Origin: a virus
Reading direction: 5' to 3' (one strand)
IMG/VR virus record: IMGVR_UViG_3300025121_000011
Span: 261,474-325,473 of that record
Length of the DNA stretch: 64,000 bases
The stretch's first letter is position 1; the number at the start of each line of letters is the position of its first letter. The position numbers and the translations under genes are program-made. Below, in pieces: positions 1 to 15,123 of this stretch. The notes beneath the pieces are model-generated. The model was not told the origin of the DNA. It ran no database searches and saw nothing but the letters and a program-made list of their open reading frames with translations.

Positions 1-379
1 CTTGCGAACTTGGCACTGGCACAATACAACCTCTTGCACCGGGAAGGATGAATGCAGTCGAGACGGTTTCTCATGGTATACCATGAGAAAAGAATCTGAA
101 AAGGGAGAGGTGCTATACATGAGTAATCACAAGGCGCTGTAACTCTAAAAAGATCTTCTCCAGAGTAAGAAAAGGACATAGGAGTCCAGAATGATTCGAA
201 AGCATAGTGTCCGTGAAGTTGTAAAGGTCGCAGAAAGCGATTTCATGACGGAAGAGGAGAGGGCATATCGAAGTGATCGGTGGAGCCGGCGAAAGGGGAA
301 GATGAAGGGGAAGGGGAAACAAGAGGATCGCGGGAAAAACCGCGATTTTGATGAAGGGGGGTATTGAGAAGAGACGGGG

Positions 380-410
380 AGGGGCACGGAAATCCGTGCC
401 CTTCCTTTTG
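380..410 (+). terminator. rho-independent terminator
   Basis: GGGGCACGGAAATCCGTGCCC hairpin plus TTCCTTTTG. Confidence 0.5.
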
Positions 411-420
411 ATATATAAGG

Positions 421-456
421 TTGGCATAGAACATGCATTAAGCAAAGACCGTGCCA
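421..456. promoter_or_regulatory. nested-palindrome element (TTGGCA ... TGCATTAAGCA ... TGCCAA)
   Basis: family member 1 of about 16; conserved 13-nt core TTGCATTAAGCAA in either orientation flanked by TGGCA/TGCCA arms. Confidence 0.5.
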
Positions 457-517
457 ACGTGTATACAGATAAGTCTAAAAATATATTCTTCGTAGTAACT
501 AATCGACGGAGGTACCA

Positions 518-889
518 ATGCGAACCATTACGCGTATGTTTCTGATCCAGGGACTGTCAACCGTTGCCGGTGTCAGTGGTTGCACGATTCTGATCTCTGA
601 GATTGCGTTCCTTGAGGGTATCGATCCGATGTCCCTGGTAATCCTGGCGATTACATCAATCGTATCTGGAGGGGCATCTATCATTCTGATCATGACGCTT
701 CCCAAGGCTTCCAAGGTAGAAAGCTCCGCATATGTGGGCGAGGATACGGATGATATTGAAACGGAGGAGATGGCCGATCCTTATGCCTACTGGGATGCCT
801 ATGGTTCCGGAACCACTTACCCGGAAGATCGGGAAGCTATCATCGGTCGCATCGGAAACAATGGAATCGTGGTACGATTCGGAAAGTAA
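518..889 (+). CDS. hypothetical small membrane protein (hydrophobic N-terminal half, acidic C-terminus)
   Basis: ATG ORF with GGAGG SD 7 nt upstream; preceded by palindrome element and promoter-like module. Confidence 0.55.
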   Translation: MRTITRMFLIQGLSTVAGVSGCTILISEIAFLEGIDPMSLVILAITSIVSGGASIILIMTLPKASKVESSAYVGEDTDDIETEEMADPYAYWDAYGSGTTYPEDREAIIGRIGNNGIVVRFGK

Positions 890-916
890 TCTCAAGGGGC
901 TTTGCCCTATTCAATG

Positions 917-952
917 TGGCATAGAACATGCATTAAGCAAAGACTGTGCCAA
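917..952. promoter_or_regulatory. nested-palindrome element
   Basis: TGGCATAGAACATGCATTAAGCAAAGACTGTGCCAA. Confidence 0.5.
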
Positions 953-1040
953 GTCAAACACCGGCGGGAATAAGTTAACTCTAAAAAGATATCTTCCGAA
1001 GTAATGAATAGGTGTAAGGAAACAAAGCAAAGAGGCTCCT

Positions 1041-1724
1041 ATGAAAAGCGCTCACCACTCAAACGAGATCATTGATGAAATGATCGCTACCCGAAGGGAA
1101 TCAAACCCGGAAGAAGTCTGGACACGAGATGTTCCCGCGATTCACCAGAATCGCATTCTCGGAAATAATGTCACCGTGGCGGCGGAAAGTGATGCGGGGC
1201 GTGGTGCTCCGGTTCTTGATCTCTATGGATTGGTTCCAATCTGTGGGGGAGCGATTACCGATGAAGTGCTGATCTCTGTCAAGAGTACGGAAGGAGCCGA
1301 TCGGATCACGGGTAGAACCTGTGTGTTCACTACGGGAACTGAGAGGCACATCAGGGCGATTCTGGCGCAACTCATGAATCCTGACGTTTCAATCCCGGTG
1401 CTTTTCGTGCACCGAAACACCACGAATGGTCAATGGGTACAGACGTCTTTCGATGCCTGCAAAGTGGTCCGGGCCTTGTATAATCTTCAGGGTGAGGGAG
1501 ATTACTGCGAAGATTCTCCTGCGAAGTGGTCGACAGGAAAGCGGGGCGTTCCAATGGTGGTTCGTGTGCGAGAGCAGATCTATAAAGATACCGTCTATTA
1601 CTATCACCAGATTCGGTTCAATATGGCTCCGCTGATCGCCATGGGTTTGGTGCCAGAATGGCGAAAGGTGAATAGCCCGACACTTGAGTTGGACGACGAC
1701 ACCGATACGATCGCGTCAATGTAG
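1041..1724 (+). CDS. hypothetical protein
   Basis: 227-aa ATG ORF, SD AGAGG upstream, promoter module upstream, terminator hairpin downstream (1741-1768). Confidence 0.55.
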   Translation: MKSAHHSNEIIDEMIATRRESNPEEVWTRDVPAIHQNRILGNNVTVAAESDAGRGAPVLDLYGLVPICGGAITDEVLISVKSTEGADRITGRTCVFTTGTERHIRAILAQLMNPDVSIPVLFVHRNTTNGQWVQTSFDACKVVRALYNLQGEGDYCEDSPAKWSTGKRGVPMVVRVREQIYKDTVYYYHQIRFNMAPLIAMGLVPEWRKVNSPTLELDDDTDTIASM

Positions 1725-1783
1725 AATGTAGGTGTAAAGAAAGCCGTCCGGATGGGCGGCTTTTCGTTATTTCATAACTAATG

Positions 1784-1819
1784 TGGTATAAGTATTGCAT
1801 TAAGCAAGTATCATGCCAA
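1784..1819. promoter_or_regulatory. nested-palindrome element (degenerate arms)
   Basis: TGGTATAAGTATTGCATTAAGCAAGTATCATGCCAA. Confidence 0.4.
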
Positions 1820-1905
1820 CGCATGCATCTGGATAACTCTAAAAATATTTTCTGTAGAGTAATAAAGAACTGTGAGTAACCATCGTCTGACATTCGGGAG
1901 GCATA

Positions 1906-2136
1906 ATGTTTGGAATCTACCGTCTGCATTCAGGCCGACCCCGGCTGCATTACCGTGGAACACTTGAACATCTACTGGTAAAGTTGTGCGCCGATTCCAT
2001 GTATGCAAATGCAGCGCCAATGACAAGAGCGCGTGCATGCGGTATCGAGGGGACGATCGATGAAGTTACCGCATTCTTTGCGGCGGGTGGGAAGCGGTGG
2101 GGTGGCGGAGCGTACTACCTTGTTCAAGAGGCTTAA
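1906..2136 (+). CDS. hypothetical small protein
   Basis: 76-aa ORF, SD GGGAGG upstream, module upstream. Confidence 0.4.
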   Translation: MFGIYRLHSGRPRLHYRGTLEHLLVKLCADSMYANAAPMTRARACGIEGTIDEVTAFFAAGGKRWGGGAYYLVQEA

Positions 2137-2190
2137 AGGGTTCATCTCCAAAAATATATCGTCTTAAGTAATAAAGGAACACAGGAGAAG

Positions 2191-2436
2191 ATGATGCTCA
2201 CTTTGCGATATTTCACCCTTCGCGGGGACAAGATCAGCGTGATCAAGGCTGTTCGGTCGTTCACAGGTTTGGGCCTCAGGGAAGTAAAAGATGCTGTCGA
2301 AGATGCGAACCCGGGAAAAGTGATGGCGGATTATGATATCTTCACCATGAAACTTTATTATCCGAAGGAGCAAGAACAAGAGATTCGTAATGTCGCCTGT
2401 ATGTTGATGGATGTAAGTTCCGTGTTTCCCCATTAG
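2191..2436 (+). CDS. ribosomal protein bL12 (L7/L12) C-terminal-domain-like protein
   Basis: KISVIKAVRSFTGLGLREVKDAVEDANPG matches the L7/L12 CTD signature (IKxVRxxTGLGLKEAKDLVE); SD AGGAGA; terminator 2452-2486. Confidence 0.55.
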   Translation: MMLTLRYFTLRGDKISVIKAVRSFTGLGLREVKDAVEDANPGKVMADYDIFTMKLYYPKEQEQEIRNVACMLMDVSSVFPH

Positions 2437-2451
2437 CGCGAAAGAAATAGG

Positions 2452-2486
2452 AAGCCCCGGCGGTTGTTTCGCCGGGGTTTTTCTGT
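2452..2486 (+). terminator. rho-independent terminator
   Basis: CCCCGGCGGTTGTTTCGCCGGGG plus TTTTTCTG. Confidence 0.6.
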
Positions 2487-2496
2487 GTATCACTCT

Positions 2497-2531
2497 TGGC
2501 ACATAACTTGCTTAATGCAAGTGTCATGCCA
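2497..2531. promoter_or_regulatory. nested-palindrome element, core inverted (TTGCTTAATGCAA)
   Basis: same arms, core in opposite orientation. Confidence 0.5.
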
Positions 2532-2557
2532 GCATATAAATAAGTATCTTATGCCGT

Positions 2558-2610
2558 GGCGGCAAAAGAATCACAATAACTCTAAAAAGATATCCTCCGG
2601 AGTAACTAAG
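2558..2610 (+). promoter_or_regulatory. conserved promoter-like module (GGCGGCAAAAG box, TTAAC/ATCAC -35-like, CTCTAAAAAGATATCC, GTAACTAAG)
   Basis: one of about 20 near-identical modules about 40-70 nt upstream of gene starts; this one heads a 520-nt ORF-free transcript. Confidence 0.5.
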
Positions 2611-3133
2611 AGTTGCCAGCACAAAACGAGTAAAAGAAGTAAACGAGGAAAAGAATAAGTACCCGCTGGTCTCTCAAATCTTAGTAACAAAAAGAGGTGC
2701 ATATGCCTGGTTGATAAGGTTCTCACCTAATGTCGTCTAAAACTTTGGTTCCTTAAGTTGAGCGCGACTTCCGAGGCATCGGAAGGAAATACCGGCAAAT
2801 AACGGTTCTATGGTCGCGCCAGGGGGCGGGCCACTAAAAGAATCGTTCGCGCTCAGTCGAGAATAAGCAGGTTAAAGATACTTTTGCGCCGCTCGACAAC
2901 CTACTTCTGTCGATGAAATAACCCGCACACCGCTTTTTACATAGCCGCAACGGAAGGGGCACACCTGTTAGCTTTGCATATCCTAATATTCCATAGGGAT
3001 ATGTGCGGGCTGGAATCAACAGGGAAGTGCGAACCCGGTCAAGGCAAAGAGACGGAAGCCTGTTAGGGTTGATAGAGAGAGATAGGAATAAGATGCCCAA
3101 GGAGACGCGCGCTCCTTGGGTTTCTTTTTGTTT
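2611..3133 (+). ncRNA. candidate ~520-nt non-coding RNA (promoter module to terminator, no ORF)
   Basis: module 2558-2610 followed by an ORF-free GC-rich stretch with many local helices and a strong terminator. Confidence 0.4.
3095..3133 (+). terminator. rho-independent terminator ending the 2611-3133 ORF-free transcript
   Basis: CCCAAGGAGACGCGCGCTCCTTGGG plus TTTCTTTTTGTTT. Confidence 0.6.
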
Positions 3134-3142
3134 AAAAGTAGT

Positions 3143-3179
3143 TTGGCATGAGACTTGCATTAAGCAAAGGCCATGCCAA
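3143..3179. promoter_or_regulatory. nested-palindrome element (8-bp outer arms TTGGCATG/CATGCCAA)
   Basis: TTGGCATGAGACTTGCATTAAGCAAAGGCCATGCCAA. Confidence 0.55.
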
Positions 3180-3216
3180 TGTATATGCGTATGACTAATG
3201 AATGGATAGATATTGT

Positions 3217-3269
3217 GGCGGCAAAAGAATCACAATAACTCTAAAAAGATATCCTCTGGAGTAACTAAG
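3217..3269 (+). promoter_or_regulatory. conserved promoter-like module
   Basis: GGCGGCAAAAGAATCACAATAACTCTAAAAAGATATCCTCTGGAGTAACTAAGG. Confidence 0.5.
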
Positions 3270-3304
3270 GACTGTAAGAACCCTAACCACCAACGAGGTA
3301 CCTC

Positions 3305-3793
3305 ATGCGCCCTATCAAGCTTTCTCGAATCGTCATTCGCAGTGCCACCGTCGTTCGCTCTTGGCTTGAACGATGGAACGATTCCGCCCGTTCCATCTGG
3401 GAAGCTCAGGTTCCTGAGGGCCTTCCTCCGCTGGTTGTTTGCGAGGTTACCGTTCCGGGGGCATCGAAGGATGATGCGGAGAACCCCAATAAGGGGAATG
3501 TGGTAATGCTGGTCCCGACGGAAGAAGTGGACGACATGATGGAGGAGTTGCTTTTGCAGGCCAACGAGGGTCGACCGGCCACGGCGGCGGAGGTTGTCCG
3601 GAAGACGGCCACTTGGATCGATATTGGAACCGAAGACGCACCGAATCTGATTTTTTCGTTCAAGGTTTCTGAGGCTCCTGGCAGTCGAACAATCAAGGTT
3701 GCCGAGAGTGATCTTCCCCTGTTCCTTACCGGTCTCAATCTGAGGTTCAAGTCGTTGATTGTCCAGTGGAATGACGCCCATCCGGACAAGTAG
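3305..3793 (+). CDS. hypothetical protein
   Basis: 162-aa ORF after module 3217-3269; terminator hairpin 3815-3843; overlapping minus ORFs look like GC-rich shadow frames. Confidence 0.55.
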   Translation: MRPIKLSRIVIRSATVVRSWLERWNDSARSIWEAQVPEGLPPLVVCEVTVPGASKDDAENPNKGNVVMLVPTEEVDDMMEELLLQANEGRPATAAEVVRKTATWIDIGTEDAPNLIFSFKVSEAPGSRTIKVAESDLPLFLTGLNLRFKSLIVQWNDAHPDK

Positions 3794-3814
3794 AGAAAGA
3801 AAGAAAGAAAGGAG

Positions 3815-3843
3815 GGAAGGGGCGCATGCGCCCCTTCCCTTTA
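3815..3843 (+). terminator. rho-independent terminator
   Basis: GGAAGGGGCGCATGCGCCCCTTCC plus CTTT. Confidence 0.55.
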
Positions 3844-3898
3844 AACCTGTAGAATGAAGGGCGGATATATCCGTCCTTTTCGTGTATCTTTATTTTAG

Positions 3899-3935
3899 TT
3901 GGTATGGTTCTTGCATTAAGCATATATCATGCCAA
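3899..3935. promoter_or_regulatory. nested-palindrome element
   Basis: core variant GCATTAAGCAT. Confidence 0.45.
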
Positions 3936-3967
3936 CGCATATTATGTTAACACATACACATACCCAT

Positions 3968-4020
3968 GGCGGCAAAAGATTTGCAGTATCTCTAAAAAGA
4001 TATCTGCTGTAGTAACTAAG
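3968..4020 (+). promoter_or_regulatory. conserved promoter-like module
   Basis: GGCGGCAAAAGATTTGCAGTATCTCTAAAAAGATATCTGCTGTAGTAACTAAGG. Confidence 0.5.
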
Positions 4021-4043
4021 GGCTGTGAGAAACCACTAACAGA

Positions 4044-4085
4044 GTTACCCAACAGAGTTACCCAACAGAGTTACCCAACAGAGTG
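4044..4085 (+). repeat. 3x tandem 13-bp direct repeat CAGAGTTACCCAA
   Basis: three perfect copies immediately upstream of the acidic-protein gene RBS. Confidence 0.7.
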
Positions 4086-4093
4086 AGGTTCTT

Positions 4094-4318
4094 ATGGCTT
4101 TTTCTTTTGATGAATACAATAATCGTCCTTATACTTTCATCGCGGATCAAGATGAAGTAGATGACGATTGGTCAGACGACGATGATGATTGGAGCGAACC
4201 CTCTGAAAATGATATGTGGGAATCGTTCCCTGATGATGATGACGACTACACGACGAATGACCCTGACAACGACTATTACATAGAACCCGACTACACGGAA
4301 TCCAATAAGGACTACTGA
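4094..4318 (+). CDS. highly acidic small protein (D/E/W-rich), possible DNA-mimic-type protein
   Basis: 74 aa, about 40% Asp/Glu (DDDWSDDDDDWSEPSENDMWESFPDDDDDY); follows module 3968-4020 and a 3x 13-bp tandem repeat. Confidence 0.5.
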   Translation: MAFSFDEYNNRPYTFIADQDEVDDDWSDDDDDWSEPSENDMWESFPDDDDDYTTNDPDNDYYIEPDYTESNKDY

Positions 4319-4770
4319 TAAGGAATACTGAGGGATTGGACATCATTGGAGCGAGATGTCATGATGGTTCGCTCTACCCATGCCCCTTAAGTGGGTGTTA
4401 CCAACAAGGAGTTAGGAATGTATAAGAATAAGAATAAGAATAACTCTGGACGGGATTTATCCTGTTCACCAGCAGGATAAGCTGCTGGGAGCAAAGTAGG
4501 CCGTGAGAGCTTTGGATACCTTCTGTCTGACAGCAGAGGGCAAACGAAAAAGCAAGCCGAAAAGCTTGGTGTGAGGGATGCGAAGACAGAGACCTGTCAG
4601 GTCTGGTCGTTCACCTAAAACCCTCCCTTGGTCCGCCGTGTGTGCAGATTAACTTAAGAATGCGTGTCCGGATACGCAAACTGAGACACTGATGCGCACA
4701 TAGGGTAAGCGGGCCTATTTTAGTAACTAAAACGGAGAAAGTTAAAACAAAAAAGGAAATAAGCGATTCT

Positions 4771-4862
4771 GCCCTGGGTCTGATACAGTGGGGTTCGTCA
4801 CTTAGAAGGTTCATAACCTCTTGGACGACAACGACTGCCAGACCCAGGGCGTTTCATTGTTT
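4771..4862 (+). terminator. long-stem terminator-like hairpin
   Basis: GCCCTGGGTCTG ... CAGACCCAGGGC enclosing about 50 nt, followed by GTTTCATTGTTT. Confidence 0.45.
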
Positions 4863-4872
4863 AAAGATTACT

Positions 4873-4908
4873 TGGCATGAGACTTGCATTAAGCAAATGT
4901 CATGCCAA
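4873..4908. promoter_or_regulatory. nested-palindrome element
   Basis: TTGGCATGAGACTTGCATTAAGCAAATGTCATGCCAA. Confidence 0.55.
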
Positions 4909-4933
4909 CGCACGTATAAGCATTTTATACTCT

Positions 4934-4985
4934 GGCGGCAAAAGAATAACATCATCTTTAAAAATATATTCTTTGTAGTAACTAA
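4934..4985 (+). promoter_or_regulatory. conserved promoter-like module
   Basis: GGCGGCAAAAGAATAACATCATCTTTAAAAATATATTCTTTGTAGTAACTAA. Confidence 0.5.
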
Positions 4986-5004
4986 CATCTGAAAGGAGGC
5001 TGAG

Positions 5005-5877
5005 ATGGCAATGATTTCCAAAGATGAAATGCTTGCGCGAGTAGTTGACCCTATTCTTGAGGCAATGAAAGAGGGAAAGCTGCTATGGCTTCAAGGATGG
5101 AATGTGGGTGCGGGTGCGGGTCTCCCTTATAACCCGACCAAAGCATCTAATAAGCAAGCGTATCGAGGTGCGGTCAATAACATCTTGATGTGGTTTGCGT
5201 CCGCTGCTAATGGTTGGGGCGACCCTCGTTGGATGGGTTTTGCTCAAGCGAAAACAAAAGGATGGCGAGTTCGGAAGGGGGAGGAGTCGACCCAAATCTA
5301 TGCTCCAATCATGGGTTCGTATCCGATTGAAGAGAACGGCCAAAAGGTTTGGAGAAAATATGTCAAGGGCTTCAACCCTGTTCATGTTTTCAATGCCCAA
5401 CAGGTGGATGGAATCCCCGCGATTGAAAAGGCTGGAACCTTGGATGTCTCCACCGGATATGCTGCCGCAGAGGACATGTATAAGGCTATGAACGTGCAAA
5501 CGATTCATGGCGGTAATGTGGCTGCATATGCATATCAGGTTGACATCATTAGGATGCCGGAACCAGAAATGTTTGTGGGCGCAGATGAATACCACGCTAC
5601 GCGCTTGCATGAAATGGGGCATGCGACGGGGCACCCGTCTCGCATGGATAGAAGGATGTTCGGAACAGGGTTACAGGATTACGCTCAGGAAGAGCTTGTA
5701 GCGGAGTTGTTTGCTGCTTTCGCATGTGCAGACATTGGCGTATCCAAAGCTGAAATGACGCAGAATCATGCAGCATACCTCAAAAGCTGGCATGAGCGTC
5801 TAAGCAGGGAACCAAAAGCATTCATAGATGCCGTATCGGCAGCATGGGAAGCTTTTGAGTTTGTTCGAAAACTGTGA
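5005..5877 (+). CDS. ardC: ArdC-like antirestriction protein (ArdC N-domain plus zincin HExxH domain)
   Basis: N-terminal PYNPTKASNKQAYRGAVNNILMW matches the ArdC-N pattern (P.N..TG..YRG.N...L); C-terminal HEMGHATGH zinc-metalloprotease motif. Confidence 0.7.
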   Translation: MAMISKDEMLARVVDPILEAMKEGKLLWLQGWNVGAGAGLPYNPTKASNKQAYRGAVNNILMWFASAANGWGDPRWMGFAQAKTKGWRVRKGEESTQIYAPIMGSYPIEENGQKVWRKYVKGFNPVHVFNAQQVDGIPAIEKAGTLDVSTGYAAAEDMYKAMNVQTIHGGNVAAYAYQVDIIRMPEPEMFVGADEYHATRLHEMGHATGHPSRMDRRMFGTGLQDYAQEELVAELFAAFACADIGVSKAEMTQNHAAYLKSWHERLSREPKAFIDAVSAAWEAFEFVRKL

Positions 5878-6043
5878 TAGAGATTAATCTGGCAAAGAAG
5901 AGACAAGCGAAGAAGCTTGTTTCTTGCGTGAGATATTTGCATATGCACGCTTTGGAGTTGGTTCTTTTGTTTTTGGTGATAATTGTTTCGATACTGTTTG
6001 TTATCACCAGTTTTTAATAAAATAACGAGGTGCAGGGTTTGAG

Positions 6044-6080
6044 TTGGCACAGTTTTTGCTTAATGCAGTTATCGTGCCAA
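6044..6080. promoter_or_regulatory. nested-palindrome element (inverted core)
   Basis: TTGGCACAGTTTTTGCTTAATGCAGTTATCGTGCCAA; identical copies at 6662 and 7707. Confidence 0.55.
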
Positions 6081-6172
6081 TGCATACACACTAGTTTACT
6101 CTAAACTAGTTTACTCTAAAAAGATATCCTCTGGAGTAACTAATGATTGTAATCCGCTAAGGAGGTGTTTTA

Positions 6173-6607
6173 ATGGCAAAGTTTCTGATCGACTTCCGTG
6201 ATCCACCGAACTCCCTGGTCAAGTGTGTCAAGGCTCTTAAGAAGATTTCCGGAATGAGTTATAGGAGAGCAAAGGACGCCGCGATACTTACTGATCCGAT
6301 CGTTGTGGAGATTCCGATGTTCTCCGAGAACAACGAAATCTCCCAAGGGATGATTAGGACTTGGTTTGCAGAGGAAATCGGTTGGACTATCATGGTTGGA
6401 AGTCCCAAAATGCTTCCCGACCGAACAGGACTCTTCACAATGCACTTTCGGAACGGATCCCGGATGGATTCGGTAAGGATTGAAGTGTTCGAGTTGGTGA
6501 ACGATGGTAGTAGACCTGAGATTGATCGTTATTTCTTTTCCTATAAGGGAGATAGCCGTATGCAGAGCTTTTACAGCACGACCGATGACCACTATCTGAC
6601 GGATTGA
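6173..6607 (+). CDS. hypothetical protein
   Basis: 144-aa ATG ORF, SD AAGGAGG, module upstream, terminator 6616-6650. Confidence 0.55.
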   Translation: MAKFLIDFRDPPNSLVKCVKALKKISGMSYRRAKDAAILTDPIVVEIPMFSENNEISQGMIRTWFAEEIGWTIMVGSPKMLPDRTGLFTMHFRNGSRMDSVRIEVFELVNDGSRPEIDRYFFSYKGDSRMQSFYSTTDDHYLTD

Positions 6608-6615
6608 TACCCGGA

Positions 6616-6650
6616 AGAGCGGGGGCGCTTTGCGCCCCCTGCTCTTGTTT
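6616..6650 (+). terminator. rho-independent terminator
   Basis: AGAGCGGGGGCGCTTTGCGCCCCCTGCTCT plus TGTTT. Confidence 0.6.
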
Positions 6651-6661
6651 ATGTATCTGAG

Positions 6662-6698
6662 TTGGCACAGTTTTTGCTTAATGCAGTTATCGTGCCAA
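6662..6698. promoter_or_regulatory. nested-palindrome element (inverted core)
   Basis: identical to the 6044 copy. Confidence 0.55.
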
Positions 6699-6708
6699 CG
6701 CATATATA

Positions 6709-6760
6709 GGCGGCAAAAGATTAACAGCATCTTTAAAAATATATTCTTTCGAGTAACTAA
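6709..6760 (+). promoter_or_regulatory. conserved promoter-like module
   Basis: GGCGGCAAAAGATTAACAGCATCTTTAAAAATATATTCTTTCGAGTAACTAA. Confidence 0.5.
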
Positions 6761-6777
6761 TAGTTGAAAGGTAAATA

Positions 6778-7647
6778 GTGTGGTGTTCAACAACAGAAAC
6801 CTTTTTGAATATACTAAGGTGTGAAGATTTAAGGATGGATAACCTCAATAGGAGTAACTCAATGTCCAGTTCGTCTTTCGTCACGCTTATGTCTGTTGTT
6901 ATCGACCCCGCTGATCTACCTGCCCTTTTTACCGAGTTGGAGGACACTGCTGATCGTGTATGGTTGTCCCGGACCTGTGTTTGTGACCGATACACAATTA
7001 GGGGCGTGCCAGCAAGGAGGGTCGATGTTGTAATCGAGAACCGTTTGTCGACGACTAACCTTGCTGAGATTGATCCTTGCGAACGAATTGTAATGTCGGT
7101 CGTGGAAAAGGCCGGGCGCTTCGATGGTGCCATTCGTTGGCGTCTGACAGTTCGTGTCGTGCGTAGCATGGACCTTGTGATCCGCGGTGCCGATGGGTGC
7201 GTAATCAATCCGATTCCCGGTGGCCGTCTTGATGTTGAGTTGACATCAAATGGTAAGTATGGGAGTGTTCGCGTGACTCTATCTGACGGTACCGGCATTC
7301 GGTGGGATCAGAGTTTCGTTCGTCTTCGCTCTGACCTCGGTGATTACAGTCCTGCTCGGCTTGTGATGTGGCATGCCAGGAGATACTATGGTTTTCTTTT
7401 AGCCTCTGATGAGGGCTATCAGGAAGTGGTTGCCCTTGCTGATTCTTGGAAGATTCCAGGAGAGGCGTCCACACTTGCGGAAGCGAATCGGGCTGCATCT
7501 CGTGAACTGTACCGTCTTGCCCGTAATGGTGGATGGCGAAAGCTTACACTTAGGGAACGGACAAAGCTCGGTCTTTATGGTGAGGCACAGTGGATTCCTG
7601 AGAAGATCTATGCCCGCGCGCAGATGGAACATCGGATGGTAAGATAG
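6778..7647 (+). CDS. hypothetical protein (start uncertain: GTG 6778, alternative ATG 6835 or 6861)
   Basis: long ORF after module 6709-6760; ATG 6861 has the best SD (TAGGAG); terminator 7664-7696. Confidence 0.5.
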   Translation: MWCSTTETFLNILRCEDLRMDNLNRSNSMSSSSFVTLMSVVIDPADLPALFTELEDTADRVWLSRTCVCDRYTIRGVPARRVDVVIENRLSTTNLAEIDPCERIVMSVVEKAGRFDGAIRWRLTVRVVRSMDLVIRGADGCVINPIPGGRLDVELTSNGKYGSVRVTLSDGTGIRWDQSFVRLRSDLGDYSPARLVMWHARRYYGFLLASDEGYQEVVALADSWKIPGEASTLAEANRAASRELYRLARNGGWRKLTLRERTKLGLYGEAQWIPEKIYARAQMEHRMVR

Positions 7648-7706
7648 CGGTAAAAGAGCAGGGAAGAAACGGGCCTCTTCCGGCCTGTTTCATTTATATG
7701 TCCATG

Positions 7707-7743
7707 TTGGCACAGTTTTTGCTTAATGCAGTTATCGTGCCAA
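7707..7743. promoter_or_regulatory. nested-palindrome element (inverted core)
   Basis: identical to the 6044 copy. Confidence 0.55.
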
Positions 7744-7753
7744 TGCATACACA

Positions 7754-7806
7754 GGCGGCAAAAGATTAACAGCATCTTTAAAAATATATTCTTTCGAGTA
7801 ATATAA
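7754..7806 (+). promoter_or_regulatory. conserved promoter-like module
   Basis: identical core to the 6709 copy. Confidence 0.5.
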
Positions 7807-7843
7807 GTCTGTAAGCATCTACACACTCAAGGGGAGAATACTG

Positions 7844-8032
7844 ATGAAATACTCTGTCTACTCCAGATCAGCGAGGTGGTGGAATGGCAAAAAGTGGGTA
7901 ACCACTATGGAGGCGCTTAGCTTGCCGAAGAATGGTCAACTTTCTTCTGAGCGAGTATTTAAGACGCAAAAAGCGGCTCTTGCTGCGATCACATGTGAAG
8001 ATCTTGATATTAGGATTACCAACCAAGGATAA
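7844..8032 (+). CDS. hypothetical small protein
   Basis: 62-aa ORF, SD GGGGAGA, module upstream. Confidence 0.4.
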   Translation: MKYSVYSRSARWWNGKKWVTTMEALSLPKNGQLSSERVFKTQKAALAAITCEDLDIRITNQG

Positions 8033-8034
8033 AC

Positions 8035-8235
8035 ATGCCCACACACACCACCTGCATAGAACTGATTCGTCGTCCGCATGAAGTGAATGTTCGTCCATGT
8101 GGTGGAACGATGCGAGAGTCGAGTGCGATGATTCCAATCTATGCATCAAATCATAGAGGACATTGTATGCGACCAATCACATACAAACGAAAGACTGTAT
8201 GGAAGTGTGTTCGATGTGGTCATAGTATCGGATGA
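8035..8235 (+). CDS. small Cys-rich (zinc-ribbon-like) protein
   Basis: 66 aa with CxxC...CxxC spacing (CIEL...PCGG...CVRCGH). Confidence 0.4.
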   Translation: MPTHTTCIELIRRPHEVNVRPCGGTMRESSAMIPIYASNHRGHCMRPITYKRKTVWKCVRCGHSIG

Positions 8236-8245
8236 TTCGCCGAAA

Positions 8246-8299
8246 GGCGGCAAAAAGTTAACTTCTCCTCTAAAAATATATTTTCCAAAGTAACTAAGG
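8246..8299 (+). promoter_or_regulatory. conserved promoter-like module
   Basis: GGCGGCAAAAAGTTAACTTCTCCTCTAAAAATATATTTTCCAAAGTAACTAAGGG. Confidence 0.5.
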
Positions 8300-8331
8300 G
8301 CTGTAAGAAATCTTCAAACAGAGGGGCACAC

Positions 8332-8634
8332 ATGCTCTGTCAATATCTGGTTCTCGATCCAGAAAACAACGATGCCACGATTGGAATGGTAAGTGAAGCA
8401 GAAATCTGGATTGTGCGGAATGAATATGATATGTATCACACAGGCATCGCCTTGATTGATAGTGAAGTTCGGGAACGCGTAAGCGTGCAGGAACTTATTA
8501 AAGTGTGCGAGTCTTTGATTGCTTCTTTTAAAAAGACTTCAAACAATAGGGTGTCAGGATTAACACAAATGAGGGATTTTGTTGGTGATTTCAACCATCT
8601 GGCTGAACTGATGAATAAGTTGAAAGTTCTTTAG
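8332..8634 (+). CDS. hypothetical protein
   Basis: 100-aa ORF after module 8246-8299, SD GAGGGG. Confidence 0.5.
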   Translation: MLCQYLVLDPENNDATIGMVSEAEIWIVRNEYDMYHTGIALIDSEVRERVSVQELIKVCESLIASFKKTSNNRVSGLTQMRDFVGDFNHLAELMNKLKVL

Positions 8635-8709
8635 CCAACATTCGTATAACTTTTGATAAACTCTACAACCAAATCCATAACCCAACCAAACCAATAATCA
8701 GAGGTGATA

Positions 8710-9018
8710 ATGATTTCTCGACGCATGGTTCGAAGTCTTTCTCTTAGTCAGGCTGAGAATGTTTACAATGTCTTTGCTGATCGAGCGGACGAACTGCGCT
8801 CAGATGCATTTGATGCGATTTCGGCCATCAAGACTCCTGCTGGTATCAATGGATATACATTGATGGAACTTGTTGACATCGCTCGCGATATGAAGCAAAT
8901 GGAGCAGGCATCTGAGCGTGTGGGTACCGTTATCGACAACTGGGATACCGGTGGGATGCCTCCTCGCGATCCGAAGGGCAAGATGTCGAAGGAGCTTCAG
9001 AGTGAGCCTATCTGGTAA
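8710..9018 (+). CDS. hypothetical protein, paralog of 9620-9994 (shared NWDTGGxPPR C-terminal motif)
   Basis: ATG at 8710 with SD AGAGG (track start 8704 is GTG); C-terminal motif shared with the next gene. Confidence 0.5.
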   Translation: MISRRMVRSLSLSQAENVYNVFADRADELRSDAFDAISAIKTPAGINGYTLMELVDIARDMKQMEQASERVGTVIDNWDTGGMPPRDPKGKMSKELQSEPIW

Positions 9019-9438
9019 TAGAAAGTCGAGTGTATATACGATCGCGAAGGCTTAATGAAATGGTCGTGCTCGTAAATAGGATGTGCTTCAACTGTCAACA
9101 TTAAACCTCCTATCTTTTCCGACTTAAAATAAGAATAACCGCTAATGGACCCCGTTAGTTCCGCACATAGGAGCGAGGGGAAGTGTTGAAAAAGTTAGCG
9201 GGTAAGAGCATTGATAAATCTGCTTGAAAGTAGCTGCCCTGAGAACACCGCGGGAAACAACCGCACCCATAAACATGGGAACGATGCGAACAACGATGCG
9301 GACAGGCAAGTAGATTATCATAAGCTCCCATCATCTTGTTAAGCGAAAAGTGGACCGGATGTGTAGATGGACGGGCACATAGAGTGTAGCCTCTTGATTT
9401 ACCGGAAGCTTGTACAAGTATTAGGTTAAACTCTGAGA

Positions 9439-9468
9439 AGGCGGATGCTAATGTATCCGCTTTCTTCC
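9439..9468 (+). terminator. rho-independent terminator
   Basis: GGCGGATGCTAATGTATCCGC plus TTTCTTCC. Confidence 0.5.
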
Positions 9469-9478
9469 TTATTTGTAT

Positions 9479-9518
9479 TTTGGCACGATTTTTGCATTAT
9501 GCAGTTCTTGTGCCAATG
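9479..9518. promoter_or_regulatory. nested-palindrome element (core variant TTGCATTATGCAG)
   Basis: TTGGCACG ... TGTGCCAA arms. Confidence 0.45.
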
Positions 9519-9526
9519 CATATGCT

Positions 9527-9580
9527 GGCGGCAAAAAGTTAACTTCTCCTCTAAAAATATATTTCCCAAAGTAATTAAGG
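9527..9580 (+). promoter_or_regulatory. conserved promoter-like module
   Basis: near-identical to the 8246 copy. Confidence 0.5.
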
Positions 9581-9619
9581 GCTGTAAGATTCCTAAGAAA
9601 ACAAAAGTAGGAGGATCAA

Positions 9620-9994
9620 ATGATTACTCGGGCAATGCTTCTCGCTCTTCCTCGCCCTGTTGTTCAGACTCTTGGGGACCAGGTTAGTGTAGCGATTGAC
9701 GGTGTGCAGACAAAAGCATTTGAAAATCTGGTTTCGATCACCGGCAAATCTTCACATGATATCACCGCGGATGATCTCATTGCGCTGGCGGCTGCTGGAA
9801 CTAAGCTTCGCACGCTTACACAAGCCGATGAAAGGCTTAGTCTGCTTCTTGGCAACTGGGATACGGGCGGTCGTCCACCTCGAACGCATGGTGATGATAT
9901 GACAGACGACCCCTCATGGGAAGGCGACCCTGAGACGTTCTCGTCGCAGCCAGTAGACTACGAAGGCGAGTGGAGGGCAGGAGTGTGGCGATGA
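9620..9994 (+). CDS. hypothetical protein, paralog of 8710-9018
   Basis: SD AGGAGGA upstream; module 9527-9580 upstream; NWDTGGRPPR motif. Confidence 0.5.
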   Translation: MITRAMLLALPRPVVQTLGDQVSVAIDGVQTKAFENLVSITGKSSHDITADDLIALAAAGTKLRTLTQADERLSLLLGNWDTGGRPPRTHGDDMTDDPSWEGDPETFSSQPVDYEGEWRAGVWR

Positions 9995-10294
9995 AGACAA
10001 ATCGAGACGACAGCCAGAGCGATTACAACTATGATAGCAGACATGATAGCCGACGCCGACGGACGACGGAGGCGACGACGGCAGCACGACGACAGCGACA
10101 GGCCGAAAGAGAGGCGGACGATCGCCGGACGCTGGTCTTGATGATCGGACAGGAGAGATTTGACTCAGATATGGTCTCTACTGTAGAAAAGTAGTGGGAG
10201 TGTGCGTGCTAATGAATGAGTACACAGTGTTTGTTCAGTTTGTAGATGGATAAATCCCGGCGCCCGAACCGTATGCCGGGCAGAAGGAGTAGAT

Positions 10295-10786
10295 ATGATC
10301 ATCGATTGGCCGTGGAATGGCGAAGAGTTGGCGTTTGCCCATCTTCCCAATGAGGTGGTCTACGCGTGTGAATGCGAAAACCGGACGGCGTACTTCGATG
10401 TCGCCGGCATCTGTATTTTGGTTTCTGGCAAATGTGACGTGTATAGGCGTACACCATACCAACTGTTCGTCTGGCGCCCCAATGCCGAAGATGCTGAATG
10501 GTGGCAAGATATATTTCGTCACGGAGTTGAAAACCGACTCCGGGGAGAATCTGATTTTGCCCAGCCCCGGTACATTGATCCCTCTAATCAAGTCGCAGAA
10601 TGGGAAAAGGTTGAATGGCCTATTCCGCGGGAGTGGGTGGCGCATCTACCGCCCCCACTGGTACCTCGCACTTCTGACCCTCAATTTTACGGCGTGTTCG
10701 TCCTTTGTGATGATGAGTGTCACCAGCGCAAACTGTTGGAACGTTTCGCCGGAAATAAGTTTAAATGCCGTGCGTGGAACTTGTAA
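10295..10786 (+). CDS. hypothetical protein
   Basis: 163-aa ORF, SD AAGGAG 8 nt upstream. Confidence 0.5.
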   Translation: MIIDWPWNGEELAFAHLPNEVVYACECENRTAYFDVAGICILVSGKCDVYRRTPYQLFVWRPNAEDAEWWQDIFRHGVENRLRGESDFAQPRYIDPSNQVAEWEKVEWPIPREWVAHLPPPLVPRTSDPQFYGVFVLCDDECHQRKLLERFAGNKFKCRAWNL

Positions 10787-10848
10787 GGAGAAAACATACA
10801 AGTGTTCACTCATCGACTCTGGCGGTAAAAACATTACATGTATATGCA

Positions 10849-10884
10849 TTGGCATAGTTTTTGCTTAATGCATGTATTGTGCCA
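10849..10884. promoter_or_regulatory. nested-palindrome element (inverted core)
   Basis: TTGGCATAGTTTTTGCTTAATGCATGTATTGTGCCACC. Confidence 0.45.
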
Positions 10885-10905
10885 CCACGATTCCAAACAC
10901 CGCCT

Positions 10906-10959
10906 GGCGGCAAAAGATTTACTATAACTCTAAAAATATATTCTTTGCAGTAACTAAGG
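10906..10959 (+). promoter_or_regulatory. conserved promoter-like module
   Basis: GGCGGCAAAAGATTTACTATAACTCTAAAAATATATTCTTTGCAGTAACTAAGG. Confidence 0.5.
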
Positions 10960-10980
10960 ATTACATACAAACATCAAGAG

Positions 10981-11835
10981 ATGAAAAAAATGCCTATTTC
11001 TCATATAACCTCAGAAGAGACCGCAGAAAATATACGAAGGATTTTCACGGATCGTGTTGGCAAGATTCGTGCATCTACTTCGGAACTCTGTGGGTTTGTC
11101 GACTCGCCCGCCAAAACAGCGAAGATGTTTGGATTCAATCTTGAAGATGATCGCATCTATAGCGATGACGAGTGGTATGACCTCTGTGATGTAATATTTT
11201 ACGTCCGAGATATGACAGAGCTATTCAGGCGTACCACGGGCCTTCTCTCTGGTTGTAACTCTGATGCTGCATTGATGCTCTCTTTCTATGAGATCAGACT
11301 CCTGGCCAATATGCTGCGGTCTCCGAAAGTTGCACTGATGGTGCTGGCTTACATTTACAATGGAGCAATCAATCACGAACTTATGGCGATGTCCTATCTC
11401 ACGGAGATTGGAAAGTGCGTAACCGGAACCGTGGATTGTAAGGCCAACGCTTTCGCAGATGCGGCGTACCTCCTTGGGAACCATGCGGCTAAGCTTCTCG
11501 GGAGGAAGATGCCTGATCCGCTGGAGGGGCAGAGCCAGCAGAGCCACAGGTGGGCGAGTGTGGAAGAGATTCGTCAGTATGAAGATCGGATGCATGAGAA
11601 GTTTCTAAACATCACGCATTCTGCTCTCGAAAACCTCGTTGGTGTTAGCGGCCTAAAGGAAGGAGGACGCGTGTTCATCTTCAAGAGTAATGACTTGCCA
11701 GAGTTTTTGTGGGGGAAGAATGGTACAATCCTTGGTAAAGATGGAGATGACAGTTATTGGATTACACTGGCTCATCCTGGTCCCCAGGGTGAGACTGAAT
11801 GGCTGATAGATTATCATTACTTTAGAACGCTGTGA
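10981..11835 (+). CDS. hypothetical protein
   Basis: 284-aa ORF after module 10906-10959; palindromic hairpin downstream at 11858-11879. Confidence 0.55.
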   Translation: MKKMPISHITSEETAENIRRIFTDRVGKIRASTSELCGFVDSPAKTAKMFGFNLEDDRIYSDDEWYDLCDVIFYVRDMTELFRRTTGLLSGCNSDAALMLSFYEIRLLANMLRSPKVALMVLAYIYNGAINHELMAMSYLTEIGKCVTGTVDCKANAFADAAYLLGNHAAKLLGRKMPDPLEGQSQQSHRWASVEEIRQYEDRMHEKFLNITHSALENLVGVSGLKEGGRVFIFKSNDLPEFLWGKNGTILGKDGDDSYWITLAHPGPQGETEWLIDYHYFRTL

Positions 11836-11883
11836 GAACGCTTCCATAGACATTCAAATGTATCTGGGCTCATATGAGCCCAA

Positions 11884-11935
11884 GGCGGTAAAAGATTTAC
11901 AGCATCTCTAAAAATATATTCCTCATAGTAAGTAA
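11884..11935 (+). promoter_or_regulatory. conserved promoter-like module (GGCGGTAAAAG variant)
   Basis: follows palindromic hairpin TGGGCTCATATGAGCCCA. Confidence 0.45.
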
Positions 11936-11992
11936 TAGGCAAATGTTTATAAATCCGCCTCATTAAAGTGAAGCATACATAGGGAGATTATC

Positions 11993-12310
11993 ATGTTTGA
12001 TATTTGTCCAGGTTGTGGTTCTAATCAGAAAGGTGAACCGATTCCCGAGAAACTCAAACATACCGAGGCGTGTGGTGAAGGTCCATACTTCGGAAAAGAA
12101 GGCACCTGTGTAGATCCGGATCATCATTGTTATGGAAAAGAACAGGAGTATTTCTATCGTAGCGTTGGATATTATGCTTGTGATGTTACGTTGTTTTCCT
12201 TCTGTCCGGATTGTAAGATTGCATGGCATCGTTTTCTAAAGGGCGATTACTATTGGTATCTGGCTGCCAGGTACATGCAAGACGAGGGATATAAAGTCCA
12301 TGACGAGTAA
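11993..12310 (+). CDS. Cys-rich zinc-binding protein
   Basis: CPGCGS...C..C...CPDC motifs; SD AGGGAG; module 11884-11935 upstream. Confidence 0.5.
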   Translation: MFDICPGCGSNQKGEPIPEKLKHTEACGEGPYFGKEGTCVDPDHHCYGKEQEYFYRSVGYYACDVTLFSFCPDCKIAWHRFLKGDYYWYLAARYMQDEGYKVHDE

Positions 12311-12372
12311 AATACTGGTCGGATTTGTTCTGGTTGCAGTTGTTTCTGGTCTTATAATGGAGGGAGTGTGTC

Positions 12373-12588
12373 ATGCCTTCTCAAGAAGAACTCCTCGTGA
12401 CTAACGGAACAGTCCAAGTTCAAGCTCGAATATGCGGACATCGCTACATGGTAATGAGCACGCCAGTCCAGTGGTCAACATACATCTGTCGGATTTGCGG
12501 CCTGATGACAGACCTGATGGTTGTGCCTATGGAAATGCGTATTCAACAGGCAAGACTTGAGAAAAGAAACGCGCACAAAGCTCAGTAA
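12373..12588 (+). CDS. small zinc-ribbon protein
   Basis: CGHRYMV...CRICGL; SD GGAGGGAG. Confidence 0.45.
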   Translation: MPSQEELLVTNGTVQVQARICGHRYMVMSTPVQWSTYICRICGLMTDLMVVPMEMRIQQARLEKRNAHKAQ

Positions 12589-12669
12589 TCTCAAAAGCAT
12601 CTTCTGTGTATTGTGCGTTTAGGATTTTCTGGTAGAAATAACTCGTGCGAAAGCATATGGAGACAACTC

Positions 12670-12834
12670 ATGAACTATGGAAGTAAAGCGAACAAAGAAA
12701 GCATCAAAGCTATTGCTGTTGTTTTGGTAATGTTTTTTGGTGTTGCGGGCATCTTGTATGCCAGTTGGACTTGGGCAGAGTTTACATACGGAGATGGCAC
12801 TTGTGCCTTTTCTGATTGTGTAAAACTCAAGTAA
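12670..12834 (+). CDS. small membrane protein (real start probably ATG 12670 inside the track ORF 12613-12834)
   Basis: hydrophobic stretch AIAVVLVMFFGVAGILYASW; SD GGAGA 6 nt before ATG 12670. Confidence 0.35.
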   Translation: MNYGSKANKESIKAIAVVLVMFFGVAGILYASWTWAEFTYGDGTCAFSDCVKLK

Positions 12835-12945
12835 TCAGTCTTTACTAAGAAAAGGTAGGTACATAATCCTGTGGCTCGAACAGCGCTCCGCCGGATTTAT
12901 GCATGCCCGCTATCTTAGTATTTAAAGATTTTTGGTATAATATCT

Positions 12946-12981
12946 TGGCATAATTTTTGCTTAATGCAATATGTATGCCAC
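12946..12981. promoter_or_regulatory. nested-palindrome element (inverted core)
   Basis: TTGGCATAATTTTTGCTTAATGCAATATGTATGCCACC. Confidence 0.45.
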
Positions 12982-12990
12982 CCTTTTCAA

Positions 12991-13045
12991 GGCGGCAAAA
13001 ACTTAACTATAACTCTAAAAATATATCTGTTAGAGTAAGTATTAT
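12991..13045 (+). promoter_or_regulatory. conserved promoter-like module
   Basis: GGCGGCAAAAACTTAACTATAACTCTAAAAATATATCTGTTAGAGTAAG. Confidence 0.45.
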
Positions 13046-13062
13046 ACAAAGGAGAGATTCAA

Positions 13063-13343
13063 TGATTACTGCATATTTTATTTATTGTTCTACTGGTTGC
13101 TCATGCTGTTCGTATGACAACCATTTCAGCGGGCCTTTTTCTACGCGAGAGATTGCAGAGAAGATGAGGCAGGAGTTTATTGATGGTAGGAAGTTGTCCA
13201 GCCAGTTTTCTGTAGCTGGCAGATACTTAATCGAGGAAGAAGAAGCTGAACAGCTTTTAGATGGAAGGCTGATTATCAATGATCGAGTTTTTCCTGGATG
13301 GGCTGATGACGATGGGTGGAAAGAGGCATTCAAAGAGTGGTAA
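13063..13343 (+). CDS. hypothetical protein (track ORF 12957 trimmed to the SD-supported ATG)
   Basis: AAGGAGAG SD then ATG 13063; the upstream part of the track ORF overlaps the palindrome and promoter module. Confidence 0.45.
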
Positions 13344-13358
13344 TCGGAGGATTGTTCG

Positions 13359-13571
13359 ATGGGTAAGAAGATTAAGCATAGTGGTCAAAACACTGAAGAA
13401 GTAGATCGAGCTACTGCTCAGCGAGGCCAAGATCGCAAAACTCATTTTAAGGAAGGCGGATCAACTGAGGAGTGGACCGGAACCCATCGGGTTCATGATT
13501 CCCGTCCTCGTGGTTCGCGAAACCGAAGAGATTTGAGAGAACAAGCCATTCGTGAGAGCGCAGAGGAGTAG
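13359..13571 (+). CDS. small basic protein
   Basis: 70 aa, Arg/Lys-rich; SD GGAGG upstream. Confidence 0.4.
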   Translation: MGKKIKHSGQNTEEVDRATAQRGQDRKTHFKEGGSTEEWTGTHRVHDSRPRGSRNRRDLREQAIRESAEE

Positions 13572-13573
13572 TC

Positions 13574-13843: not shown

Positions 13844-13845
13844 GC

Positions 13846-14082: not shown

Positions 14083-14119
14083 TATGTGATCGCAATAAAT
14101 TAGAGTTAAAATGTTCGCA

Positions 14120-15118: not shown

Positions 15119-15123
15119 ATGTG

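Follow-up and report, generated by a model that had tools for sequence, protein, structure and literature searches.

The 64,000-nt window analysed here, positions 261,474 to 325,473 of the IMG/VR virus record IMGVR_UViG_3300025121_000011, comes from an uncultivated jumbo phage of about 300–350 kb from groundwater. Near its start, at 2611–3133 of the plus strand, lies a unit of ~520 nt without a plausible open reading frame (ORF), which is probably the gene of a stand-alone structured non-coding RNA (ncRNA); we refer to this RNA as family A. An exact-protein look-up recovered 24 contigs of the same phage from groundwater metagenomes (264–352 kb), with 99.96–100% identity across the region. All long ORFs of the window are on the plus strand, and their matches in PHROG and Pfam include a DNA ligase, an RNA ligase and the anti-restriction protein ArdC; tRNA genes are also present. 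The unit belongs to the first 21 kb of the window, which are organised as about 24 one-gene cassettes, each made up of a palindrome, a promoter-like module, a gene and a terminator. In the typical cassette a leader of 30–45 nt with a Shine–Dalgarno (SD) sequence is followed by one small ORF and then by a hairpin terminator, and terminator-like sites are frequent (17 in 8 kb vs 6.5 expected).

The elements that bound these cassettes recur far above chance. The core pattern of the module, TCTAAAAA-N-AT-N-T-N7-AGTAA, has 26 matches, all on the plus strand, compared to 0.24 expected from shuffles. Twenty-four of them are within the first 21 kb (144–21135; for example 2558–2610, 3217–3269 and 6092–6144), nearly all 30–45 nt upstream of an ORF bearing an SD sequence, and the remaining 43 kb contain only two weak matches with two mismatches each (33927 and 52850). 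The full consensus reads GGCGGCAAAA-N12-CTCTAAAAA-N-ATAT-N7-AGTAAnTAAG(G)GCUGUAAG; the module of related phages retains GGCGGYAAAA ... A-rich ... GTAAT. The module does not fit a sigma-70 consensus scan. Because of its recurrence we infer that it has promoter activity, and the perfect copy at 2558–2610 would be the promoter of the RNA unit. A palindrome with the consensus TTGGCAY-N5-TTGCATTAAGCAA-N5-RTGCCAA stands ahead of most early units, between the terminator of one cassette and the module of the next. Its half-pattern occurs 31 times vs 0.34 expected and is paired on both strands at 14 places between 1 and 15.2 kb (Table 1). Each arm resembles a sigma-54 −24/−12 element (TGGCAY-N5-TTGC; TTGCA), and the palindrome may serve as an operator or as two sigma-54 promoters placed back to back; if it is the real promoter, the 5' end of the RNA would lie ~90 nt further upstream. 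Related phages have the form TGGCA-N6-TTGCATAATGCAA-N6-TGCCA, which is kept upstream of the RNA units of the two phages that carry homologues (contigs L025 and L033). A literature search on sigma-54-type phage promoters and on early ncRNAs of jumbo phages found nothing directly relevant; a differential RNA-seq study of the phage ΦKZ predicted one small RNA only, of 75 nt, which a northern blot did not confirm.

The initial annotation had described 2611–3133 as a GC-rich unit that follows a promoter module, contains no plausible ORF and ends at a strong terminator. Most of this description holds. TAA, TAG and TGA are all present in each of the six frames, so no reassignment of a stop codon rescues an ORF and an alternative genetic code is ruled out, and metagenome gene callers left 2436–3305 empty in all seven assemblies of the phage (7/7). 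The terminator stem has ten pairs, six of them G-C, followed by a run of T, and the L025 and L033 homologues end in an equivalent GC-rich hairpin with a U-run. The generic layout of a stand-alone ncRNA gene, with a promoter module of its own, a Rho-independent terminator and no ORF between them, was thus found in the window, L025 and L033. The description as GC-rich did not hold: the unit has 47.6% G+C, vs 47.8% in 1–2610 and 46.8% in 3133–6000, and is richer only than the body of the phage (36.4% in 20–64 kb). By position, G+C is 43–48% over the first ~20 kb and 32–41% over the remainder of the window, a sharp composition split inside one genome (45.8% in 1–20000 vs 36.4% in 20000–64000).

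A comparison with Rfam, which had been proposed as a check, matched no family in 2611–3133. We used Rfam 15 (4227 models), a set that includes GOLLD, ROOL, OLE, HEARO, raiA, 6S, tmRNA, RNase P, riboswitches, ribozymes and group I/II introns. The only matches that the window gave at gathering thresholds were tRNAs, all of them more than 13 kb from the unit. The segment 2400–5000, searched at E up to 10, had no match inside 2611–3094, and the L033 homologue gave none at E up to 1. ARAGORN called no tRNA or tmRNA in the unit or its homologues (window and nine related loci). There are no tandem repeats in 2656–3133, the sole one being a weak A-rich 9-nt repeat at 2629–2655, and the neighbouring proteins contain no reverse transcriptase domain; signs of a retron msr-msd, a diversity-generating retroelement template, a type III antitoxin or a CRISPR-like array were thus not found.

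Homologues of the unit were found by using ArdC, encoded 1.9 kb downstream, as an anchor. Its relatives form a tight group with 49–61% identity (next matches ≤37%), and their contigs share this cassette architecture, with the palindrome followed by GGCGGYAAAA ... GTAAT. In two of these phages, whose ArdC is 52–56% identical to that of the window, an ORF-free promoter-to-terminator unit of family A lies directly upstream of ArdC (L025:5296–5786 and L033:228–955). Five blocks are common to the three units in the same order: GCGCGA (then a hairpin), CGCGCYNA(A)GUCG, CGACARC, GAUG and a 27-nt motif that nhmmer detects in each of them (E = 2e-5 to 6e-5). The protein encoded upstream of the L025 unit is a homologue (57% identity) of the 227-aa protein of the window (1041–1724), so the neighbourhood is syntenic. 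Beyond these, an nhmmer search of the window and about 25 related loci, with three conserved blocks as queries, detected no additional copy. Scanned across metagenomes, the degenerate 27-nt motif recovered no phage other than these two, along with 8 GC-rich chance matches, and a scan of 185,579 genomes with it gave 10 chance matches. Family A therefore has three known members, with one copy per genome. GenBank phages gave no megablast or blastn match with the window region or the L033 homologue and no tblastn match with the 227-aa neighbour, and no phage in IMG/VR is close to the phage of the window. Scans of IMG/VR with the palindrome, the promoter-module pattern, a 24-nt motif, the 162-aa and 227-aa neighbours and an alignment of the 227-aa family were empty or gave chance single matches.

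Conservation in related phages had also been proposed as a check, and the fold of the unit is indeed kept in L025 and L033. From 5' to 3' the architecture consists of a variable A-rich region, the Pa domain, the Pb hairpin domain, a long irregular rod and the terminator; within the rod, Pc is followed by the GAUG/GAUA loop, short helices and Pe, with a variable apical region on top and the 27-nt motif beside it. In a block-anchored alignment of the three sequences, six helices comprise 39 aligned positions, and 106 of the 117 cells are paired, with G·U in 11 cells. Compensatory changes on both sides were seen at 18 of the 39 helix positions. As a control, the 3' partners were slid by 1–3 nt, which left 42–58 paired cells and 0–7 compensatory positions. 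RNAalifold on the same alignment recovered Pa, Pb, the long-range Pc and parts of Pe. Single-sequence folds provide support that is independent of the hand alignment: two or more of the three sequences give each helix a high base-pair probability, except Pe (only 0.31–0.75), and enforcing all helices costs 4–5 kcal/mol relative to each minimum free energy (MFE).

Table 1. Features in and around the family A unit, in window coordinates.
Feature	Position	Strand	Description
Palindrome sites 1–7	422–456, 917–951, 1784–1818, 2497–2531, 3144–3178, 3900–3934, 4873–4907		
Palindrome sites 8–14	6045–6079, 6663–6697, 7708–7742, 9481–9515, 10850–10884, 12946–12980, 15125–15159		
Small protein with ribosomal L7/L12 C-terminal domain	2191–2436		Pfam E = 4e-9; directly upstream of the RNA unit
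37-bp palindrome	2496–2532	none	TTGGCAC-N5-TTGCTTAATGCAA-N5-ATGCCAG
Promoter-like module	2558–2610	+	GGCGGCAAAAGAATCACAATAACTCTAAAAAGATATCCTCCGGAGTAACTAAG; perfect copy; pattern GGCGGCAAAA-N12-CTCTAAAAA-N-ATAT-N7-AGTAACTAAG
Predicted non-coding RNA, family A	2611–3133	+	~520 nt; no ORF, no Rfam, tRNA or tmRNA match
A-rich 5' region	2611–2757	+	poorly conserved; ~100 nt absent in L025
Pa-closed domain	2759–2855	+	2759–2767 TGAGCGCGA pairs with 2847–2855 TCGCGCTCA
Hairpin Pa1	2768–2774/2779–2785	+	CUUCCGA-GGCA-UCGGAAG; immediately 3' of invariant GCGCGA
Helix Pb	2856–2861/2892–2897	+	GUCGAG/CUCGAC; encloses variable hairpin region
Helix Pc, 5' strand	2900–2908	+	CCUACUUCU; long-range, pairs with 3078–3086
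GAUG	2912–2915	+	with GAUA 3071–3074 forms an internal loop inside Pc; same relative position in all three members
Helix Pe	2930–2938/3047–3055	+	CCGCUUUUU pairs with AAGAGACGG
Near-invariant 27-nt motif	3033–3059	+	ACCCGGUCAAGGCAAAGAGACGGAAGC; consensus ACYCGGUMAMGGCMAWKAGACGRWMGC
Helix Pc, 3' strand	3078–3086	+	AGAGAUAGG
Intrinsic terminator	3095–3133	+	stem 3095–3121, 10 pairs (6 G-C), then U-run TTCTTTTTGT

The individual helices contribute to this picture to different degrees. Pa, found in the window as a 9-nt inverted repeat (I10) with 100% complementarity, has a GCGCG/CGCGC core in all three members and one compensatory position (A-U to G-C), and it encloses 80 nt in the window, 84 nt in L025 and ~245 nt in L033. 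Hairpin Pa1 corresponds to CUUGGGUAC/GUACCCAAG in L025 and to UCCGGCU/GGCCGGG in L033; all are paired, with several double changes, and its base-pair probability is 0.98–1.00 in all three single-sequence folds. Pb takes the forms GUCGG/CCGAC in L025 and GUCGAC/GUCGAC in L033, and RNAalifold on the isolated Pb domain gave five pairs, one of them compensatory. Of the two helices that had been singled out as examples in the initial annotation, CTCGAC is the 3' strand of this conserved Pb; the CGCGCC/GGCGGG hairpin does appear in the predicted fold of the window but lies in a non-conserved part. The long-range Pc reads CCUAC/AUAGG plus UUCU/AGAG in the window, CUUGU/GCAGG plus GCCC/GGGC in L025 and CUAAU/GUUAG plus GGC/GCC in L033, with base-pair probabilities of 0.97–1.0 in L025 and L033. 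The GAUG/GAUA loop is possibly a non-canonical structured loop; by inspection, a canonical k-turn does not fit there. Pe has nine positions, three of which are compensatory (C-G to U-A, U·G to A-U and U-A to A-U), plus an invariant U·G. Its 3' strand is the 3' half of the 27-nt motif (3047–3055); the 5' half of the motif, ACYCGGUMAMGGC, has no conserved pairing partner and is a candidate recognition site. In the A-rich 5' region, a self-complementary GUGCAUAUGC at 2697–2706 is common to L033 but not L025. The L033 member also carries a ~200-nt insertion in the Pa domain (L033:372–593), which forms a long stem and a multi-branch loop with a T-arm-like hairpin, GCGGG-UUCGAUC-CCCGC; neither ARAGORN nor Rfam called it a tRNA.

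The main residual risk, given three members and a hand-curated alignment, is that the unit is a non-functional spacer or a decayed gene remnant, whose structure would be chance combined with a hand-fitted alignment. Several findings weigh against an RNA gene and on the side of such a remnant. First, there are only three members, too few for an R-scape-type statistic, and the phage's own assemblies, 100% identical there, are uninformative, as no covariation can be obtained from them. Second, MAFFT alone misaligns the covarying hairpins; this misalignment, shared by RNAalifold, is the reason why the alignment was anchored on the five blocks and explicit pair tables were used, and since it was curated by hand and the helices were picked by eye, the numbers of pairs err on the optimistic side. 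Third, the MFE of the unit (−164.2 kcal/mol) has a z-score of −2.33 vs dinucleotide shuffles, 2 of 100 of which fold equally well, which is modest on its own. Fourth, not every helix is informative: the pairs of the Pa core are invariant and so say nothing on structure, the outer Pa pairs break in L025 and L033, and Pc is missing from the window's own MFE fold (base-pair probability 0.3–0.5). Lastly, family A is absent from L026, L031, L032 and L049, contigs that cover the equivalent neighbourhood, so it is dispensable or easily replaced; L031 is syntenic (a 228-aa gene, a gap and a 162-aa gene), and its gap holds a 58-aa membrane-like ORF and no homologue of the RNA. A spacer is nevertheless unlikely. 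The near-identical 27-nt block and four further ordered blocks have been kept though the adjacent proteins are only 52–57% identical, the compensatory positions far outnumber those of the slid controls, the separate thermodynamic folds back the helices independently, and promoter and terminator are retained in all three phages.

The initial annotation had left open whether the unit is an ncRNA or a structured leader. The second of these, a cis-acting leader, attenuator or riboswitch that would control the 162-aa ORF at 3305–3793 by conditional read-through of the terminator, would fit the position of the unit upstream of a gene on the same strand and the terminator at its end, as in attenuators. 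However, a palindrome (3143–3179) and a full module (3217–3269) intervene as in every other unit, and the ORF thus has its own promoter. The downstream gene is also not conserved, since it encodes the 162-aa protein, an orphan in our homologue search, in the window and ArdC in L025 and L033. In addition, an RNA of 520–730 nt is far longer than known leaders, and no Rfam riboswitch matched. As the unit is cut off from the gene that follows by its terminator and a new promoter, we reject the leader as improbable and retain the ncRNA, for which the unit's own module and terminator, the lack of an ORF and the six covarying helices argue.

One or more small proteins overlooked by ORF callers are very improbable. 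On the plus strand the unit does contain ORFs of 14–30 aa, the longest of which starts at TTG (30 aa), a 63-aa GTG ORF and an SD-like GAGGA at ~2646, in the 5' region; a 108-aa ORF lies on the minus strand (2834–3160). However, the short ORFs have no SD at the right distance, GAGGA has no ATG, GTG or TTG in range, the 63-aa ORF crosses the terminator into the palindrome of the next unit, and the 108-aa ORF likewise overlaps both. A conserved small protein, named at the outset as the result that would overturn an ncRNA, was looked for among the three homologues: no ORF is conserved in position or sequence or preceded by an SD, the best cross-species peptide alignments score 22–30 (noise), and base pairing, G·U pairs included, accounts for the conserved blocks. 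An element that acts at the level of DNA (a replication origin, a packaging site or a protein-binding array) is just as improbable. An ORF-free stretch near palindromes in a dense genome invites the idea, and origins are often intergenic. However, the 11 G·U pairs would turn into A·C mismatches in a DNA cruciform or on the opposite strand, 2656–3133 contains neither iterons nor tandem repeats, an AT-rich unwinding region is lacking, the GC skew has no inflection at the unit, and the unit is bounded exactly like the surrounding transcription units. Because G·U pairs do not survive as pairs on the opposite strand or in double-stranded DNA, the constraint acts on the plus-strand RNA, and the conservation of the helices together with these pairs points to selection on its fold.

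We therefore return to a stand-alone RNA gene. Family A would be transcribed as an independent, early, trans-acting structured RNA: transcription would start from the module, together with that of host-takeover and anti-defence neighbours (ArdC and L7/L12-like proteins), and stop at the unit's own terminator, and the RNA is predicted to act in trans in its folded form. If it is such an RNA, it may bind and sequester, or scaffold, a host or phage protein or ribonucleoprotein, a role that we favour tentatively because of the covarying scaffold helices, the partly unpaired invariant stretch and the conserved loop. The contact surface would be the unpaired motif half ACYCGGUMAMGGC and the GAUG/GAUA loop, positioned by the covarying helices, and a decoy or scaffold of this kind would serve host takeover or anti-defence. 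A self-assembling RNA-only particle like GOLLD and ROOL and a base-pairing regulator of a host target are both less likely than a decoy or scaffold and, to the same degree, unlikely in themselves; a ribozyme, also less likely than a decoy or scaffold, is more doubtful still. As for antisense action on the phage's own mRNAs, complementarity to the rest of the window is at chance level, with a longest match of 13 nt, and this candidate was rejected. A CsrB-like sponge was rejected as well, as GGA motifs are not evidently enriched (~10 in a rough hand count).

Family A would be a new family within a known kind, the large phage-associated ncRNAs, and belongs to no described RNA family. GOLLD and ROOL are large ornate phage or prophage ncRNAs of unknown function that form RNA-only nanocages (PMC12286853; PMC5737381), and in GOLLD the 3' region is conserved, the 5' region varies and tRNAs are occasionally inserted (PMC12286853). 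Family A is like both in being phage-borne, several hundred nt long, multi-domain and non-coding, and like GOLLD in its conserved 3' rod, its variable 5' region and, in L033, the insertion with a T-arm-like hairpin. In contrast to GOLLD and ROOL, it matches no Rfam model, differs in sequence and fold, is smaller (490–730 nt), lies in an early cassette array by anti-restriction genes rather than in a tRNA island (the nearest tRNA is 13.6 kb off) and has a narrow distribution of three related phages. Other RNAs act as decoys that titrate proteins, such as 6S (RNA polymerase), CsrB/RsmZ (CsrA) and the phage anti-CRISPR Racr RNAs. Family A is like these in its proposed function only, that of a stable, abundant structured RNA with its own promoter and terminator that would titrate a protein; it has no 6S-like rod with a central bubble, no CRISPR-repeat-like units and no Rfam match.

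The YrlA Y RNAs of bacteria and phages contain a tRNA-like domain and are bound by Ro60/Rsr. Likeness to them is confined to the T-arm-like hairpin of the L033 member and to a phage-encoded 483-aa protein with the PHROGs label "RNA-binding protein" (phrog_850; Pfam domains DUF2828 and DUF7788). However, neither the window copy nor L025 has the T-arm-like element, ARAGORN and Rfam detect no tRNA-like domain, and the phrog_850 gene (58709–60160) is 55 kb away, beside a tRNA-like cluster of its own. This cluster (54038–57320), just upstream of the gene, comprises tRNA genes together with low-scoring or over-long matches to tRNA models (56568–56681, 114 nt; 57231–57320) that ARAGORN did not call. 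The cluster and the phrog_850 protein could represent a Ro/Y-RNA-like pairing or, alternatively, the cluster could contain intron-containing tRNAs.

Family A is not the only ORF-free unit with a conserved fold in the early region. A second one, family B, lies at about 4320–4860 (core 4455–4640), with homologues at L026:1055–1225, L029:1470–1650 and L044:5005–5185. RNAalifold on the four sequences gave 31 pairs, 11 of them with compensatory changes, and the common motifs are CACCCGYCNGGGCAUAAG, GGGUGUGAGGGAA and CACCGAAAACCCUC. Family B always follows the gene of a small, very acidic protein (4094–4318 in the window, 852–1073 in L029 and 4625–4795 in L044). Like family A, it is found in the early region on the plus strand, has a terminator at its end, lacks both an ORF and a match in Rfam, and covaries in relatives. 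Unlike family A, it has no promoter module of its own in the window and may thus form the 3' portion of the transcript that begins with the acidic gene, and its carriers are the window phage, L026, L029 and L044. The two families have no sequence similarity, and paralogy was rejected. The 5' leader of the acidic-protein gene contains a perfect 13-nt tandem repeat, AACAGAGTTACCC, in 3.6 copies (4038–4084); L020, another assembly of the window phage, differs by ~100 nt at this repeat, which fits a copy-number polymorphism. Two other candidate RNA units resemble neither family: at 18382–18484 only ~75 nt, GC-rich (AGAGGUGCAGGGGCAAGG...CCCCUGCCGACC), separate a promoter module from the one that follows, and L050:11860–12200 is an ORF-free stretch of ~340 nt that ends in a strong terminator.

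Several observations concern the surroundings of these units. The L7/L12-like protein encoded upstream of family A is one of several small proteins with this C-terminal domain in the phage and its relatives, others being encoded at L018:6131–6394, L032:744–1211 and L049:11767–12225; in relatives, RF-1-domain (ArfB-like) and RadC proteins are encoded nearby. The L7/L12-like and RF-1-domain neighbours suggest a manipulation of translation by early genes. In related phages, two AT-rich regions (L044:1300–1480 and L049:9340–9600) hold short repeats in tandem arrays (e.g. GGAACTGCTTTCTGAT) and, after them, a GGCGG...CGTGCCAGCC element at the upstream edge of the cassette region; they might mark the end of the genome or the point at which the early region begins. 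Towards the far end of the window, a 415-aa ORF (62515–63762) is a fusion of HisF-like (His_biosynth), PRA-CH and PRA-PH domains, that is, of phage-encoded histidine-biosynthesis enzymes.

A bolder proposal, which we regard as rather doubtful, is that family A is the founder of a new class of large ornate phage RNAs and that this clade deploys several unrelated early structured RNAs as a takeover and anti-defence toolkit. The RNAs would sit in the first-expressed region alongside anti-restriction and translation-related proteins, and the candidates would be family A, family B and ORF-free units such as L050:11860–12200. The single-stranded motif half of family A would capture a host factor, for instance a defence sensor, a ribosome component or a nuclease. 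Another option is self-assembly as in GOLLD and ROOL, for which the self-complementary GCAUAUGC, shared by two members in their 5' regions, could provide a kissing contact.

The three-member seed and the consensus helices suffice to begin a covariance-model search of metagenomes and the design of probes or constructs for structural studies. Structured ncRNAs of more than 400 nt are rare in bacteria and phages, and OLE, GOLLD, ROOL and raiA each revealed unexpected biology or architecture; most of these large classes are still without a known function. The locus described here adds a candidate class with a clear anatomy, an early jumbo-phage setting and an anti-restriction gene nearby. It would also mean that "intergenic" gaps in the early regions of such phages are genes, with at least two unrelated RNA families conserved there. 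Should family A indeed act as decoy or scaffold, the takeover and anti-defence proteins encoded around it would have a counterpart at the level of RNA.

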